From a virus (Duplodnaviria > Heunggongvirae > Uroviricota > Caudoviricetes), in the IMG/VR virus record IMGVR_UViG_2563366883_000001, positions 1 to 5,037 of that record: DNA of 5,037 bases. The stretch is one strand, 5' to 3'. Every line of letters begins with the position of its first letter. Position 1 is the stretch's first letter. A program made the translations under genes and the position numbers. The notes beneath the pieces are model-generated. The model saw only the letters and a list, made by a program, of their open reading frames with translations, searched no databases and was not told the origin of the DNA. This document shows, in pieces, positions 2,506 through 4,642 of this stretch.

Positions 2506-3021
2506 ATGGCGTTAACACACCACGAACTCTGTCAGATTGCGTACAAGTTCCTTAAGCGCAACGGGTTCAAGGTTTGCTTTCATGACCGCTTTGTTGCTGT
2601 AACCAGTACCGGAGAACAGCCAGATGCTATGGGATTCAGAAATTCAGCATCATGCCTGATAGAGGCGAAGTGTTCTCGTGCTGACTTGTTGGCAGATAGA
2701 AAAAAGCGTTTCCGTAAAAATCCCTCACTTGGCATGGGCGACTGGCGATTCTTTATTAGTGAGCCGGAAATTATTTCAGTTGAGGATTTACCTCCCGGCT
2801 GGGGATTACTTCACGTTGTTAACGGAAGAGTACGGAAAGTACATGGATGGCCCAGGGGTAATTGCTGTTGGGGTAATCCTGACGATAAGCCATTTACTGG
2901 GAATAAGCAGGTTGAATGCGATTACATGTTATCTGCATTAAGGCGCATGGAGTTGAGAGGGCACCTTAATGAAATATATGACGGTGTGATTGTTAATAAG
3001 AAAGAAGGAAACGCGGCATGA
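2506..3021 (+). CDS. PD-(D/E)xK-motif putative nuclease (possibly MmcB-like)
   Basis: ATG 2506 with AAGGAG at 2494-2499; the ATG at 2473 lacks an SD. Motif GEQPDAMGF ... CLIEAKCSRADLL fits E...PD...(D/E)xK of restriction-endonuclease-fold nucleases. Stop overlaps the next ATG (ATGA). Confidence 0.7.
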   Translation: MALTHHELCQIAYKFLKRNGFKVCFHDRFVAVTSTGEQPDAMGFRNSASCLIEAKCSRADLLADRKKRFRKNPSLGMGDWRFFISEPEIISVEDLPPGWGLLHVVNGRVRKVHGWPRGNCCWGNPDDKPFTGNKQVECDYMLSALRRMELRGHLNEIYDGVIVNKKEGNAA

Positions 3022-3926
3022 TCACTATTACCAAAGGGCGACTGCTGACAATCAAGCAGTGGCGCGAAACATACGGACCGGGTAGCAACGTTGTACTGCC
3101 AGCAGAAGAAGCGGAAGAACTGGCACGAATTGCACTGGTATCGCTGGAAGCAGAGCCGGTGGCAAAGATTATAGCTCATTACCCATTAGGAGTTGACGTA
3201 GGCAAACAAAAGTTCGTACAGGCCATTGGAGAGCTTCCTGACTTTGGCGGATATCTATTTGCCGCCCCGCCAGCGCCGGTAGTGCCGGAAGAAGCAACTC
3301 CGGAAAACGTAGAAATGCTCTCTGGCTATGTTTCCACGTACAAATTAACCGATAGCGAGCGCGATATTGCTGCCGAAATATGGAACGCCTGCCGCACCGA
3401 CATGCTTCAGTCCGGAAACTTTCGGGAAAGCAAGAATTCGTCAACCAATAATTTTCGGGAAATCCCGGAAGCGTCAACCAGCTCTCCGGTAACTCCGGCT
3501 CTTCTGCCTGGTGGTTTCACCATTGAGGAGGCGAAGGAATTACATGAAGACCTGGTACGCAGCCACATAAGCAAGGCCTTAAGTGGCGAAAAGATGAAAA
3601 AGAAAGATCGCGATGCTGATTTGCGCTGGATTCATGGCGTTATAGTTCAGGCAGCGTGGTTTGTAAAAGCATCACTGGAGCAGAATGCACTATCGGGCAA
3701 CTCTCCGGTAACTCCGGATGGTTGGATAAGCTGTAGTGAGCGAATGCCGGATGATGGTCAGCACGTAATTATTTTATGTGATGGCGCATTCGTTCTTTAT
3801 GCGCAATATCGAGACGGTGAGTTTTTTGATGTAGTCCGTAATGGTGATGAATTTTTCGAAACACAGAGCCGCAATGTAACCGACTGGATGCCGTTACCAG
3901 AACCGCCGCAGGAGGTGCGCCAATGA
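3018..3926 (+). CDS. DUF551 domain-containing mosaic phage protein
   Basis: C-terminus DGWISCSERMPDDGQHVIILCDGAFVLYAQYRDGEFFD...VTDWMPLPEPP matches the DUF551 signature (W-x-S...LP...THWMPLPEPP). SD AAGGAA at 3004-3009. Contains two in-frame 17-bp direct repeats, each encoding SPVTP. Confidence 0.8.
   Translation: MITITKGRLLTIKQWRETYGPGSNVVLPAEEAEELARIALVSLEAEPVAKIIAHYPLGVDVGKQKFVQAIGELPDFGGYLFAAPPAPVVPEEATPENVEMLSGYVSTYKLTDSERDIAAEIWNACRTDMLQSGNFRESKNSSTNNFREIPEASTSSPVTPALLPGGFTIEEAKELHEDLVRSHISKALSGEKMKKKDRDADLRWIHGVIVQAAWFVKASLEQNALSGNSPVTPDGWISCSERMPDDGQHVIILCDGAFVLYAQYRDGEFFDVVRNGDEFFETQSRNVTDWMPLPEPPQEVRQ
3482..3717 (+). repeat. Pair of 17-bp direct repeats (ctctccggtaactccgg) inside the DUF551 gene
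   Basis: Exact copies at 3482-3498 and 3701-3717, in the same reading frame, each encoding SPVTP. They flank a ~200-bp segment encoding a charged, helix-like module. Confidence 0.7.
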
Positions 3927-4006
3927 TCTGGCCTGAAGCATTTGCAATTACAGGCGTTGCTATGGCTATCGCTTTTTTAGTATATGTTATTTGTCGGTGT
4001 GGGTAA
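3923..4006 (+). CDS. Predicted 27-aa hydrophobic peptide (MIWPEAFAITGVAMAIAFLVYVICRCG)
   Basis: Not in the ORF track (too short). ATG 3923 overlaps the DUF551 stop (ATGA) and is preceded by GGAGG at 3911-3915 (7-nt spacer). Hand translation gives a single hydrophobic helix, stop TAA 4004-4006. Confidence 0.35.
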   Translation: MIWPEAFAITGVAMAIAFLVYVICRCG

Positions 4007-4041
4007 AAGCGTTCGCCGGGATTAACACCAAAGGAGGGAAT

Positions 4042-4146
4042 GTGTCGGATGATATCTCACTGGCAATGGAAGGTGCGCTGGCTGTTATTGCTGTTGTGGG
4101 TGTTTACTGCCTGGTTGTGTTTTTGATGGATCGACTAGGGAACTGA
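4042..4146 (+). CDS. Predicted 34-aa hydrophobic peptide (MSDDISLAMEGALAVIAVVGVYCLVVFLMDRLGN)
   Basis: Not in the ORF track. GTG 4042 follows AAGGAGGG at 4031-4038 (spacing short, 3-4 nt). Acidic N-terminus, one TM-like helix, charged C-terminus, stop TGA 4144-4146. A 28-aa peptide in another frame (ATG 4040..4126) uses the same SD; the start is ambiguous. Confidence 0.3.
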   Translation: MSDDISLAMEGALAVIAVVGVYCLVVFLMDRLGN

Positions 4147-4154
4147 ATTCATTA

Positions 4155-4176
4155 CGATATGGGAATTCCCATATCG
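4155..4176. repeat. 22-bp perfect palindrome cgatatgggaattcccatatcg centred on GAATTC
   Basis: Every position pairs across the centre at 4165/4166. Lies between the 34-aa small ORF and the predicted hok promoter. No U-tract on either side. Confidence 0.6.
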
Positions 4177-4187
4177 GGTAAAAACGG

Positions 4188-4216
4188 TTTGCGGTAAAGC
4201 GAGAGTTAAGTAGAAT
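4188..4216 (+). promoter_or_regulatory. Putative sigma-70 promoter of the hok/mok mRNA
   Basis: -35 TTGCGG (4189-4194), 16-nt spacer, -10 TAGAAT (4211-4216, 5/6 to consensus). The predicted start site near 4222-4224 coincides with the 5' segment that is complementary to the mRNA 3' end. Confidence 0.45.
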
Positions 4217-4234
4217 TGCTGCGGGTGCTTGAGG

Positions 4235-4270
4235 CTGTCTGCCTCGGGCATGCCACCGTAAGGCAGACAG
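4235..4270 (+). promoter_or_regulatory. hok mRNA leader stem-loop
   Basis: 10-bp perfect stem ctgtctgcct (4235-4244) / aggcagacag (4261-4270) with a 16-nt loop. Lies in the predicted 5' leader upstream of mok. Confidence 0.5.
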
Positions 4271-4277
4271 AGAAAAG

Positions 4278-4343
4278 CCCCAGTTAACATTATGCGTCTT
4301 GCAGGACGCTTAACATTAATCTGAGGCCAATTTCATGCTAGCC
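4278..4343 (-). ncRNA. sok: Predicted Sok-like antisense RNA (approximate bounds)
   Basis: Inferred from the antisense promoter and from the sokC/mokC arrangement I recall. Would be complementary to the mok start codon and SD (4321-4337). The minus strand has a small hairpin (plus coordinates 4294-4309) and a U-rich stretch from plus 4270-4278. Ends not determinable from sequence alone. Confidence 0.35.
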
Positions 4344-4547
4344 ACATGTAGGTTAGCCTCTTACACGCCGAAAGGCAAGGAGAAGCAGGCTATGAAGCAG
4401 CAAAAGGCGATGTTAGTCGCCCTGATCGTCATCTGTATTACCGTCATTGTGACGGCACTGGTAACGAGGAAAGACCTCTGCGAGGTACGAATCCGAACCG
4501 GCCAGACGGAGGTCACTGTCTTCACAGCTTACGAACCTGAGGAGTAA
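4335..4547 (+). CDS. mok: Mok-like regulatory reading frame (in-frame upstream extension of hok)
   Basis: 70-aa ORF from the track, MLATCRLASYTPKGKEKQA followed by the Hok sequence. As I recall, chromosomal Mok proteins such as MokC have this in-frame extended layout. GAGG at 4323-4326 lies 8 nt upstream of ATG 4335. Confidence 0.5.
   Translation: MLATCRLASYTPKGKEKQAMKQQKAMLVALIVICITVIVTALVTRKDLCEVRIRTGQTEVTVFTAYEPEE
4350..4378 (-). promoter_or_regulatory. Putative Sok antisense promoter
   Basis: On the minus strand: -35 TTGCCT (plus coordinates 4378-4373), 17-nt spacer, -10 TAACCT (4355-4350). Placed inside the 5' part of mok, where sok promoters sit in known hok loci. Confidence 0.35.
4392..4547 (+). 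CDS. hok: Hok/Gef family type I toxin, closest to HokD (RelF)
   Basis: 51 aa, MKQQKAMLVALIVICITVIVTALVTRKDLCEVRIRTGQTEVTVFTAYEPEE. From memory this is near-identical to E. coli HokD/RelF and very similar to HokC/Gef. AAGGAG at 4376-4381 lies 10 nt upstream of ATG 4392. Confidence 0.9.
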   Translation: MKQQKAMLVALIVICITVIVTALVTRKDLCEVRIRTGQTEVTVFTAYEPEE

Positions 4548-4615
4548 GAGACCTGGCGGGGGAGAAATCCCTCGCCACCTCTGATGAGTCAGGCATCCTC
4601 AACGCACCCGCACTT

Positions 4616-4642
4616 AACCCGCTTCGGCGGGTTTTGTTTTTT
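4616..4642 (+). terminator. Rho-independent terminator of the hok mRNA
   Basis: Stem aacccgc (4616-4622) / gcgggtt (4627-4633) with UUCG tetraloop (4623-4626), followed by the T-rich run ttttgtttttt through 4642. Confidence 0.8.

Follow-up and report, generated by a model that had tools for sequence, protein, structure and literature searches.

Small membrane peptides are a known class of phage product, and the two short open reading frames (ORFs) described here, ORF1 and ORF2, appear to belong with that class rather than changing any paradigm. Among phage exclusion factors, several are small proteins of the inner membrane; for example, Imm of T4 and gp15 of HK97 are short and membrane-located, and their genes lie in phage regions that are not essential, that of gp15 being a moron expressed by the lysogen. 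Similarly, the chromosomal, stress-regulated AcrZ, MgrB, MgtS and PmrR of Escherichia coli are proteins of < 50 amino acids (aa) that consist of a single helix, are often missed by annotation and bind a larger membrane protein. The Hok/Gef toxins (PF01848) are somewhat longer single-helix inner-membrane peptides of about 50 aa, with a periplasmic C-terminal domain, expressed from loci that also contain an overlapping mok frame, the sok RNA and a long structured leader. Finally, the exo-xis/ea region of lambdoid phages, beside ea22, harbours a series of tiny, early and non-essential genes (orf60a, orf61, orf63, orf73 and ea8.5), the exo-xis ORFs encoding soluble proteins of 60-73 aa. A minimum gene length of 90 nt is built into gene callers such as Prodigal.

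The window analysed here, the whole of a 5,037 nt stretch of DNA from a tailed phage (IMG/VR record IMGVR_UViG_2563366883_000001), contains both ORFs within a lambdoid early-right operon, in the order replication genes, DUF551 gene, ORF1, ORF2, hok and DUF968/RusA/Q. The features to which the text refers are as follows.

3018 to 3926, forward strand: DUF551 gene, encoding a 302 aa mosaic protein with a C-terminal DUF551 domain, directly upstream of ORF1
3911 to 3915, forward strand: Shine-Dalgarno (SD) sequence of ORF1, GGAGG, 7 nt 5' of the ATG and inside the DUF551 gene codons for Q-E-V
3923 to 4006, forward strand: ORF1, from the ATG at 3923 to the TAA at 4004-4006, encoding the 27 aa single-helix peptide MIWPEAFAITGVAMAIAFLVYVICRCG
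4001 to 4011, forward strand: left copy of an 11 nt direct repeat, GGGTAAAAGCG, bracketing a 175 bp segment that contains ORF2 and the palindrome
4031 to 4038, forward strand: SD sequence of ORF2, AAGGAGGG
4042 to 4146, forward strand: ORF2, with a TGA at 4144-4146, encoding the 34 aa single-helix peptide (M)SDDISLAMEGALAVIAVVGVYCLVVFLMDRLGN
4155 to 4176: perfect 22 bp palindrome, CGATATGGGAATTCCCATATCG, 3' of the ORF2 stop and 5' of the hok promoter
4176 to 4186, forward strand: right copy of the direct repeat, GGGTAAAAACG
4188 to 4216, forward strand: putative promoter of the hok mRNA (TTTGCG, 17 nt, TAGAAT), placed from the sequence and the mRNA 5' end implied by Rfam
4223 to 4637, forward strand: hok/sok type I toxin-antitoxin locus (Rfam RF01794, 117 bits; Pfam PF01848, E = 1e-22)
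Within it, forward strand: leader/sok region at 4223-4397, mok at 4335-4547, hok at 4392-4547 and terminator at 4616-4633

Each of the described systems resembles this locus in part. Hok (4392-4547) is likewise a small single-helix inner-membrane peptide of the same prophage accessory region, and ORF2 was physically linked to hok in every case seen; however, ORF1 and ORF2 are shorter than Hok, have no sequence homology to it and lack its periplasmic domain, no mok-like overlapping frame, sok-like RNA or long structured leader accompanies them, and ORF2 is translated in growing cells. Many homologues of ORF1 are located in the exo-xis/ea region itself, flanked by an Ead/Ea22- or DUF551-type gene directly upstream and xis/int downstream, yet none of the exo-xis ORFs is a 27 aa membrane peptide, and ORF1 is unannotated in those phages. 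The binding of a larger membrane protein, in the manner of AcrZ, MgrB, MgtS and PmrR, is proposed by analogy as a working model for both peptides, although they are phage-borne and bear no sequence relationship to these proteins, and ORF1, unlike them, appears to be translationally coupled to a soluble phage protein. T4 Imm and HK97 gp15 share with the two ORFs their short length and their non-essential setting, and ORF2 also appears to share the lysogenic expression of gp15; by contrast, no homology to an annotated PHROG or a PADLOC model was detected for either ORF, and ORF1 is also found in a virulent phage.

The ATG of ORF1 overlaps the TGA of the DUF551 gene (3924-3926) to form ATGA; this overlap, the GGAGG, the single hydrophobic helix and the position of the ORF are all as an earlier reading made from the sequence only had described them. 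The same reading placed ORF2 correctly, with its strong SD and single hydrophobic helix, the start being GTG, not ATG. The best 19-residue Kyte-Doolittle window scores 2.45 in ORF1 (residues 6-24) and 2.72 in ORF2 (residues 11-29), with Hok at 3.09, and both peptides contain a hydrophobic stretch of bilayer-spanning length (about 17-20 residues). In the upstream protein, the DUF551 domain occupies residues 235-298 (Pfam PF04448, E = 9.7e-21), and PGAP names the upstream gene DUF551 at a near-identical locus. The supposedly gene-free stretch of 400 bp around the ORFs is shorter than had been stated, because the hok mRNA/sok region begins at 4223 (RF01794).

ORF1 represents a family of 27 aa peptides with the consensus M-x-W-P-E-A-F...Y-x-I-C-R-W-G, here termed the 'WPEAF' phage micro-protein family, of which the window carries an allele with the minority change W26C. 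Searches with tblastn found full-length copies, 55-67% identical, in 92 phage records, including Stx phages, the 933W-like PA45 and the virulent Vequintavirinae phage Av-05, as well as ORF1 in 181 phage-plasmid-sized plasmids of Escherichia, Salmonella and Klebsiella, 174 of which are non-mobilizable; the family is also present in many prophages. When a nucleotide pattern of 17 specified bases was compared with genome contigs, the matches were mostly due to chance, as expected, and credible ones came only from Escherichia and Shigella, plus two more distant candidates. At no locus inspected was ORF1 annotated as a separate gene. Only three of the 5.8 billion proteins in the databases contain it, and a query with the upstream-extended frame (the form in which both ORFs were used for protein homology searches) retrieved just three extended 'hypothetical' proteins. 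At 84 nt with its stop, ORF1 falls below both the 90 nt minimum of gene callers and the 30 aa threshold of a ribosome profiling study considered below, which accounts for its absence from annotations and protein databases. It is the newer part of the finding, a widespread family that is essentially never annotated, and it illustrates how a real and common gene, carried by hundreds of phages, prophages (including those of Shiga-toxin phages) and phage-plasmids, can be hidden by a fixed length cut-off.

The pattern of variation in this family is that of a coding sequence. Among the 160 ORF1 placements in fetched loci that lay away from contig ends, 139 have a length of 27 codons and 12 a length of 25, in most cases through an in-frame 6 nt deletion; two copies carry a nonsense codon, one has a premature stop and one has lost its stop. 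Intact frames were also found in 27 of the 29 placements identified independently of the search pattern. In a set of 55 distinct 84 nt alleles, the first, second and third codon positions have site entropies of 0.47, 0.27 and 0.79, and the other two forward frames contain stops in every allele. The ratio pN/pS, calculated for both ORFs from pairwise counts that are not phylogeny-aware, amounts for ORF1 to a moderate 0.42 in frame and to 0.74 and 1.86 off frame.

The setting of ORF1 relative to its neighbour is similarly constant. An SD-like motif precedes the ORF in 61 of 62 distinct upstream contexts, and ATGA, which formed part of the search pattern, in all 62, with TGATG also present in eight and TAATG in two, such that the start overlaps the upstream stop irrespective of which gene lies upstream. 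At each of the five phage loci examined, annotation places the end of the upstream gene on the first base of the ORF1 start codon or no more than 3 nt beyond it, and those upstream genes that were checked encode DUF551 and/or Ead_Ea22 domains. ORF1 thus carries the sequence hallmarks of a translationally coupled pair with a DUF551/Ead-type gene, and, judged on these comparisons, is very likely to be a translated gene for a single-helix membrane peptide.

ORF2 had likewise been thought unannotated and undescribed, which holds for ORF1 only: ORF2 is RefSeq WP_001278450.1, a PGAP 'hypothetical protein' identical to ECs_5710 of E. coli O157:H7 Sakai, and was published as XECs145. The exact sequence is found on about 1000 contigs. 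The family, of 29-34 aa, does not extend beyond E. coli prophages and a few coliphages; an upstream-extended query retrieved only near-identical E. coli proteins, and an exhaustive phmmer search of 1.84 billion representatives returned seven matches, all of them close relatives. It is divided between clade A, with at least 84% identity and found in E. coli only, and clade B, which is ~45% identical (...LVLKCALAIAAVMAIYCLAVVLMDRLSD) and is carried by phages Tritos and HannyBb and four IMG/VR contigs. Most relatives have an ATG at the position of the window's GTG start, the SD in clade A being AAGGAGGG or GGGAGGG; clade B has a GTG start, its own SD (GGAGG or AGGAG, 5-6 nt 5' of the conserved GTG) and a stop at the same aligned position. 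Two of the six clade B copies lack an upstream ATG and depend on the inferred internal GTG start. Two other delimitations were rejected: a 28 aa frame from an ATG at 4040, which is present only in the window's minority allele and is interrupted by stops in relatives, and a 51 aa version from a TTG (3991-4146), which has no SD, overlaps ORF1 and is not conserved at the protein level in its N-terminal part.

The coding signatures of ORF2 are found within each clade. In clade A, pN/pS is 0.18 in frame versus 1.14 and 3.96 off frame, with 4, 1 and 9 variable sites at the three codon positions; the clade is very young, so that these statistics are based on few substitutions. The corresponding values in clade B are 0.30 versus 0.69 and 0.91, with 3, 3 and 9 variable sites, and between the clades the frames are barely separated (0.55 in frame 0 versus 0.60 in frame 1). 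Among all frames, that of ORF2 is alone in staying open throughout the 15 alleles of the two clades; the others contain stops in every allele, except for one antisense frame that is open in clade B only.

Ribosome occupancy has been reported for ORF2. Hücker et al. (2017, PMC5597208) found XECs145, which contains ORF2, to be occupied by ribosomes and classed it as 'real'; in LB it gave 79.1 RPKM in RNA, 346.1 RPKM in footprints, an RCV of 4.35 and a coverage of 0.99, and in BHI an RCV of 1.14, although several copies of the locus are present per O157 genome, so the reads may be multi-mapped. The study predicted an inner-membrane location and one transmembrane helix for the product, and scored ORFs of at least 30 aa only, leaving ORF1 below its cut-off (PMC5597208). 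XECs145 maps to the Sakai prophage Sp6, beside mok/hok, and contains the 34 aa of ORF2, differing in the start codon and likewise placed between a DUF551 gene and mok/hok. However, the frame scored in that study was a 54 aa upstream-extended one, not the 34 aa ORF linked to the SD, the paper assigned neither a function nor an invariant linkage to hok (PMC5597208), and the window's allele starts with GTG. Taking the comparative signatures and the published profiling together, ORF2 is very likely to be a translated gene for a single-helix membrane peptide. The proposal of the sequence-only reading that the ORFs are translated is supported by comparative coding signatures for both and by ribosome profiling for ORF2: across homologues the frames stay open, third-position changes dominate, the one indel is in frame, and SD and start are kept. 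Some copies may nevertheless be drifting, as the ORF1 helix of the O157 Sp6 allele contains an Asp and the window combines W26C in ORF1 with the weaker GTG of ORF2.

ORFs of this type rarely arise by chance. Among 5000 dinucleotide-preserving shuffles of 3900-4222, scored with the start set at the ATG or GTG that first follows a stop, 0.3% contained one or more ORFs that reached 27 aa, carried an SD and encoded a helix of transmembrane grade, and none contained two; by the same rule the real sequence scores ORF1 only, because the SD-linked start of ORF2 lies within a longer open frame. Neither the two peptides nor several family variants gave a significant match in Pfam, NCBIfam, PHROGs or PADLOC, the PHROGs results being limited to non-significant matches to families of unknown function, and a PDB sequence search with ORF2 found nothing. 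Full-text literature searches with the peptide sequences and locus tags produced no matching text, and the general literature on DUF551 and on ribosome profiling of prophage induction held nothing specific. The position of the ORFs, between the replication genes and Q and upstream of the late operon, is not that of lysis proteins (holin, antiholin or spanin), which are encoded beside the endolysin in the late lysis cassette.

We regard it as probable that both ORFs are genuine genes for tiny single-pass inner-membrane peptides of the lambdoid accessory region, ORF1 being coupled to its upstream gene and ORF2 being a moron. ORF1 would lack expression signals of its own and depend on ribosomes that, on completing a DUF551 or Ead/Ea22-type gene, reinitiate at the ATGA, aided by the GGAGG within the last codons of that gene, and the peptide would consequently be made along with the upstream protein, early after induction or infection. 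As regards topology and function, both of which we infer, the acidic N-terminus and the Arg near the C-terminus of ORF1 suggest an N-out/C-in orientation, and the peptide might either serve the upstream protein as partner or anchor in the membrane or modulate a host membrane protein. ORF2, with its own SD, appears to travel as a unit with hok/sok, always just upstream of the hok promoter, and together with the palindrome it seems to form a 175 bp cassette inserted between ORF1 and hok in this lineage. In PA45-type phages the ORF1 stop directly adjoins the hok promoter, and in L002 the 11 nt direct repeat is perfect (11/11). ORF2 would be transcribed and efficiently translated in growing O157:H7 lysogens, and for this reason it is best read as a lysogen-expressed membrane peptide rather than a silenced toxin.

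The strict coupling of stop and start provides a concrete, testable hypothesis for the DUF551 and Ead/Ea22-type proteins, which are abundant in enterobacterial phages. A bolder version, to which we attach a rather low probability, is that the WPEAF peptide is obligatorily co-translated with these proteins and recruits them to the inner membrane, and, separately, that ORF2 is an unrecognised third component, acting as a protein, of a subset of hok/sok loci, modulating Hok action or its promoter. If true, the ORF1 module would be the first functional handle on a very common group of uncharacterised early phage proteins. The location of ORF2 beside hok/sok and its expression in lysogens make an extra component at some hok loci a modest possibility, although the linkage could also reflect hitch-hiking over about 150 bp rather than a functional tie.

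Among the alternatives, the one that survives best, while still improbable, is that the peptides serve in superinfection exclusion or host takeover, binding a host inner-membrane protein (a route of DNA entry, a transporter or a protease) so as to block other phages or remodel the host. The precedent of small inner-membrane exclusion factors counts in its favour, as do the expression of ORF2 in lysogens, in the manner of morons and exclusion genes, and the placement of both ORFs among the non-essential accessory genes of a lambdoid prophage. Against it, the database searches found no homology to a PHROG of assigned function or to a solved structure, and no meaningful match to a PADLOC model of defence or exclusion, such that no described family was recognised; furthermore, ORF1 is present in the virulent Av-05, for which protecting a lysogen would make no sense.

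The sequence-only reading had also considered that the peptides might be toxin-like, which would entail one or both being membrane-damaging and silenced by an antisense RNA, as is the neighbouring Hok. Their size, hydrophobicity and single helix are those of type I toxins, ORF2 always adjoins the hok/sok locus, and the antisense strand of ORF1 contains a sigma-70-like pair of hexamers (4007 to 3979, 9/12 matches). However, this idea fares poorly and we consider it unlikely. Neither peptide matches the Hok/Gef profiles (PF01848 and the NCBIfam Hok models), which do detect the neighbouring hok, nor any other toxin model, and over 3911-4146 there is no Rfam RNA family, hok/sok being recognised only downstream. 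The hexamer pair was rejected as the promoter of an antitoxin RNA, being a single match at chance level (one found, 1.1 expected) whose -10 element coincides with codons that most other alleles do not share; simple scans, of a kind that an unconventional RNA might evade, detected no antisense terminator over the ORFs. ORF1 appears to be translationally coupled to a gene that is not a toxin and occurs in virulent phages too, and ORF2, instead of being repressed, is highly occupied by ribosomes in healthy, exponentially growing Sakai cells in LB (RCV 4.35), with a lower value in BHI.

Slightly less probable again is a role for ORF2 in cis, as leader or upstream ORF of hok rather than as the gene of a trans-acting protein, its translation and the adjacent hairpin tuning read-through into, or folding of, 5'-extended hok transcripts. 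The spacing would suit such a role: the 5' motif of hok lies 46-80 nt downstream of ORF2 in all 48 complete placements, and in clade A a stable hairpin (z = -3.9), formed by the palindrome, lies 10 nt after the stop. Nevertheless, the hairpin has no U-tract, clade B has no palindrome, and most hok loci have no ORF2, the full ORF1-ORF2-hok arrangement occurring in about 640-670 of the > 3000 E. coli genomes with hok-like matches. Purifying selection on the amino acids of ORF2 would, in addition, be needless in a pure leader. The putative hok promoter at 4188-4216 was not called by a scan for consensus promoters.

It is very unlikely that the ORFs are not genes at all, and are instead chance frames in DNA conserved for upstream control of hok, for recombination junctions or through recent ancestry. 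Such an explanation would fit the near-invariance and youth of ORF2 clade A and the absence of ORF1 from essentially all annotations and protein databases, but the length and frame of ORF1 are kept down to about 55% amino acid identity, with variation highest at third positions, a single indel, in frame, and the SD conserved in all but one context. Likewise, the low within-clade pN/pS of ORF2 (0.18-0.30) is seen in its own frame only, its RIBOseq coverage is 0.99, and comparable ORFs almost never arose in the shuffles.

Finally, the possibility that ORF1 is not a separate protein but a membrane-anchor extension of the DUF551 protein made by -1 ribosomal frameshifting, as might be suggested by the 24 open codons 5' of the ATG in the window and a TTT TTC run near the opening of this frame, was rejected as extremely unlikely, since the upstream frame is of inconsistent length and closes 1-5 codons from the ATG in 10 of 62 contexts, what is conserved is the strong SD and the ATG, a canonical X XXY YYZ slippery heptamer is absent from the window, and a shift at that point would remove half of the DUF551 domain. 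One minor observation concerns the palindrome between ORF2 and the hok promoter, the core of which recurs across many unrelated phage contexts.

Two small open reading frames, ORF1 and ORF2, lie between the DUF551 gene and the hok/sok type I toxin-antitoxin locus, and both are very likely to be real coding genes. The sequence-only reading had described each as having a Shine-Dalgarno (SD) sequence and encoding a transmembrane (TM)-like helix, and this description is confirmed, with one TM-grade hydrophobic stretch found per peptide.

Features between the DUF551 gene and hok
3911-3915: SD sequence of ORF1, GGAGG
3923-4006: ORF1, 27 aa, its ATG sharing bases with the TGA of the DUF551 gene (3018-3926)
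4031-4038: SD sequence of ORF2, AAGGAGGG
4042-4146: ORF2, 34 aa, starting with GTG
from 4223: hok mRNA/sok region (Rfam RF01794, 117 bits)
4392-4547: hok (PF01848)

Among 5000 dinucleotide shuffles of 3900-4222, 0.3% contained at least one ORF with an SD sequence and a TM-grade helix, and none contained two. The window allele carries two minority changes: an ATG to GTG substitution at the ORF2 start, which is ATG in most relatives, and W26C, which alters the elsewhere near-invariant C-R-W-G end of ORF1; both frames remain intact. The former change also creates an out-of-frame ATG at 4040, opening a 28-aa hydrophobic frame (MCRMISHWQWKVRWLLLLLWVFTAWLCF, 4040-4126) that was not found in relatives.

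In the E. coli lambdoid prophage concerned, the window makes up the early-right accessory region. The gene order at near-identical (99.8%) complete-genome loci is replication O/P-like, DUF1627, DUF4406, Ead/Ea22-like, DUF551, a small hypothetical gene, hokD, DUF968, RusA and Q, and prophage Sp6 of O157:H7 Sakai has a layout equal to that of the window. The region 3850-4350 is matched in part by 3011 of 5426 complete E. coli genomes, chiefly through hok, with at least 80% of it present in 636; at least 80% of 3900-4180 is present in 673, with a median of four matching places per genome that matches at all. A scan of Rfam found no family over ORF1 or ORF2. A weak isrK-like match (27 bits, the gathering score being 50) covers the 3' end of the hok transcript at 4556-4637, including a terminator at 4616-4633.

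Phage small membrane proteins are a known class, of which ORF1 is a new and widespread member. The earlier description of both frames as unannotated holds for this one: its exact sequence matched nothing in any protein collection searched, no family was found in the libraries scanned, and just three proteins contain it, all 'hypothetical' and N-terminally extended. Using tblastn, full-length 27-aa homologues were identified in 92 phage records, and homologues in 181 plasmids of ~80-100 kb, mainly non-mobilizable, while a nucleotide-pattern scan of IMG/VR recovered more than 119 contigs. In all phage records inspected (PA45, Stx2a_WGPS2, VT1-Sakai, vB_EcoS-666R9 and Av-05, a virulent member of the Vequintavirinae) the frame is unannotated, and starts at the final bases of the previous annotated gene.

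The family follows the pattern M-[TNSI]-W-P-[ED]-A-[FL]-x3-G-x-[AV]-[MI]-A-x-[AV]-x3-Y-x-[IVL]-[CF]-R-W-G. The 160 placements located clear of contig ends include 139 of 27 codons and 12 of 25 codons, and an in-frame 6-nt deletion is carried by most of the shorter ones; defects comprise two TGG to TAG changes at codon 3, one premature stop and one lost stop. Outside the selection imposed by the search pattern, 27 of 29 placements are intact. A set of 55 distinct alleles gives entropies of 0.47, 0.27 and 0.79 for codon positions 1, 2 and 3, pN/pS is lowest in frame (0.42, against 0.74 and 1.86 in the other frames), and both other forward frames always contain stops. Of 62 distinct upstream contexts, 61 have an SD-like motif ahead of the start. 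Mosaic early accessory proteins are encoded by the upstream genes, and DUF551 and/or Ead_Ea22 domains are present in many of them. A frameshift fusion of ORF1 to DUF551 was considered and is unlikely, because the ORF1 frame upstream of its ATG is open for just 1-5 codons in 10 of these 62 contexts. The hok mRNA starts 42 nt downstream of around half of the collected copies; the remainder are near xis/int, in phage-plasmids or elsewhere, and ORF1 is therefore not tied to hok.

ORF2, by contrast with ORF1, has an existing database entry as a hypothetical protein, and its ribosome occupancy has been published. It is identical to the PGAP protein WP_001278450.1 (with variants WP_001278459/60 and WP_077779993), is ECs_5710 in Sakai, and its ATG-start 34-aa sequence has exact matches in ~1000 contigs. 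It also forms the complete end of the 54-aa XECs145 (Hücker et al. 2017, PMC5597208), the coordinates of which correspond to Sp6 once the genome-version shift is allowed for. Published ribosome profiling agrees with the proposal that ORF2 is translated: XECs145 had an RNA level of 79.1 RPKM, a translatome of 346.1 RPKM, a ribosomal coverage value (RCV) of 4.35 and a coverage of 0.99 in LB, and 121.3 RPKM, 150.1 RPKM and an RCV of 1.14 in BHI, with next to no translation under cold/osmotic stress (PMC5597208), these RIBOseq reads possibly being common to several copies because O157 strains have multiple copies of the region.

The ORF2 family is narrow: a search of 5.8 billion clusters returned E. 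coli proteins alone, at 84% identity or more, and 1.84 billion representatives gave just seven close matches. Nine distinct nucleotide alleles of the window type (clade A) vary at four, one and nine sites at codon positions 1, 2 and 3, with a pN/pS of 0.18 in frame and 1.14 and 3.96 in the other frames. Diverged alleles (clade B), ~45% identical to clade A, occur in four IMG/VR contigs and coliphages Tritos, Evi, mEp460_ev081 and HannyBb; these encode 29 aa from a conserved GTG, have their own SD sequence 5-6 nt ahead of it and stop at the same aligned position. Within clade B pN/pS is 0.30 (variable sites 3/3/9), and between clades discrimination is weaker, at 0.55 in frame and 0.60 in frame 1. 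Some 25-30 nt ahead of the clade B start, Tritos, HannyBb and IMG/VR contigs (among loci L236 at about 1444-1472, L237, L029 and L031) share a conserved promoter-like element, TTGAAK-N17-CATATT, which suggests that these alleles may have their own promoter; no obvious equivalent was found upstream of the window ORF2.

In the window lineage ORF2 has the appearance of a small cassette that was inserted between ORF1 and hok, since an 11-nt direct repeat (GGGTAAAA[G/A]CG, at 4001-4011 and 4176-4186, spacing 175 bp; perfect in locus L002) brackets the 175-bp segment of ORF2 plus a palindrome, and 933W-like phages have an uninterrupted junction, the hok promoter directly following the ORF1 stop. The perfect 22-bp palindrome (CGATATGGGAATTCCCATATCG, 4155-4176), located after the ORF2 stop and before the hok promoter, forms a stable hairpin without a U-tract. 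More than 119 viral contigs of IMG/VR contain its 19-nt core, which has dozens of different, unrelated flanking sequences, often directly follows a TGAATT... stop context, and in one case (L011, near 1906) falls inside an opposite-strand CDS. The core sometimes adjoins hok without ORF2 (L135, L137, L110 and L045), and in L135 and L137 ORF2 is reduced, ahead of the palindrome, to roughly its final 10 nt. The palindrome may be a mobile palindromic element or a protein-binding site. The hok mRNA 5' motif is 46-80 nt downstream of ORF2 in all 48 complete placements, in both clades, and in Tritos the linkage is kept though the next gene upstream is on the opposite strand; the converse does not hold, as the majority of hok loci lack ORF2. 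This fixed position may reflect function or just tight physical linkage.

Both peptides are predicted to be single-pass and probably N-out/C-in, based on an acidic N-terminus and an arginine after the helix. Lacking signals of its own, ORF1 would be made by reinitiation after the DUF551/Ead-type gene, so that its synthesis would accompany that of the DUF551/Ead-type protein during the delayed-early phase; the simplest model has it serving this protein as a membrane anchor or partner, or else modulating a membrane protein of the host. ORF2 would behave as a moron-type membrane peptide, given its own SD sequence (plus a plausible promoter in clade B) and reported translation in growing lysogens. 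Any one specific function for either is improbable, and the earlier suggestion of an exclusion role, or one in host takeover, may hold at a low probability. The suggestion that they are toxin-like is not supported, as there is neither homology to Hok or another toxin nor an sRNA signature (a single antisense promoter-like site was found, no more than expected by chance, and it is not conserved), ORF1 overlaps, and is probably coupled to, a non-toxin gene and occurs in a virulent phage, and ORF2 has an RCV above 1 in healthy cells. By definition neither belongs to a type I toxin system, though either may still do harm when over-expressed.

Some ORF1 alleles may be decaying. That of O157 Sp6 (L307, 4345-4428) has an aspartate mid-helix (A17D), and the codon 3 nonsense change is common to two loci (L006, 1524-1607, and L182) with otherwise different alleles, suggesting spread by recombination. 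The DUF551 frame (302 aa) is unbroken in the window; its counterpart in the near-identical JE86-ST05 (L001, 4169-5077) is annotated as two PGAP 'partial' pseudogenes, a split apparently resulting from its mosaic make-up, with an Ead-like module at the N-terminus and a DUF551 module at the C-terminus. A 79-aa ORF at 1385-1624, with a hydrophobic N-terminal segment and basic tail, may differ in frame status from its counterpart in the near-identical genome, since the latter is a 'DUF4752 family protein, frameshifted' pseudogene. The ORF1 family may be much broader than the reach of the nucleotide-pattern search, because peptides of the same design (M-S/N-W-P-E/D-A-F then one helix, 23-29 aa, with an ATGA overlap with the upstream gene) are found outside Enterobacteriaceae, in L272 (Achromobacter aloeverae), L288 (a Bdellovibrionales MAG), L087, L090 and L112. 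Among the more distant forms, the one in Achromobacter and a 23-aa form following an Ead_Ea22+DUF551 protein likewise overlap an upstream gene of this kind.
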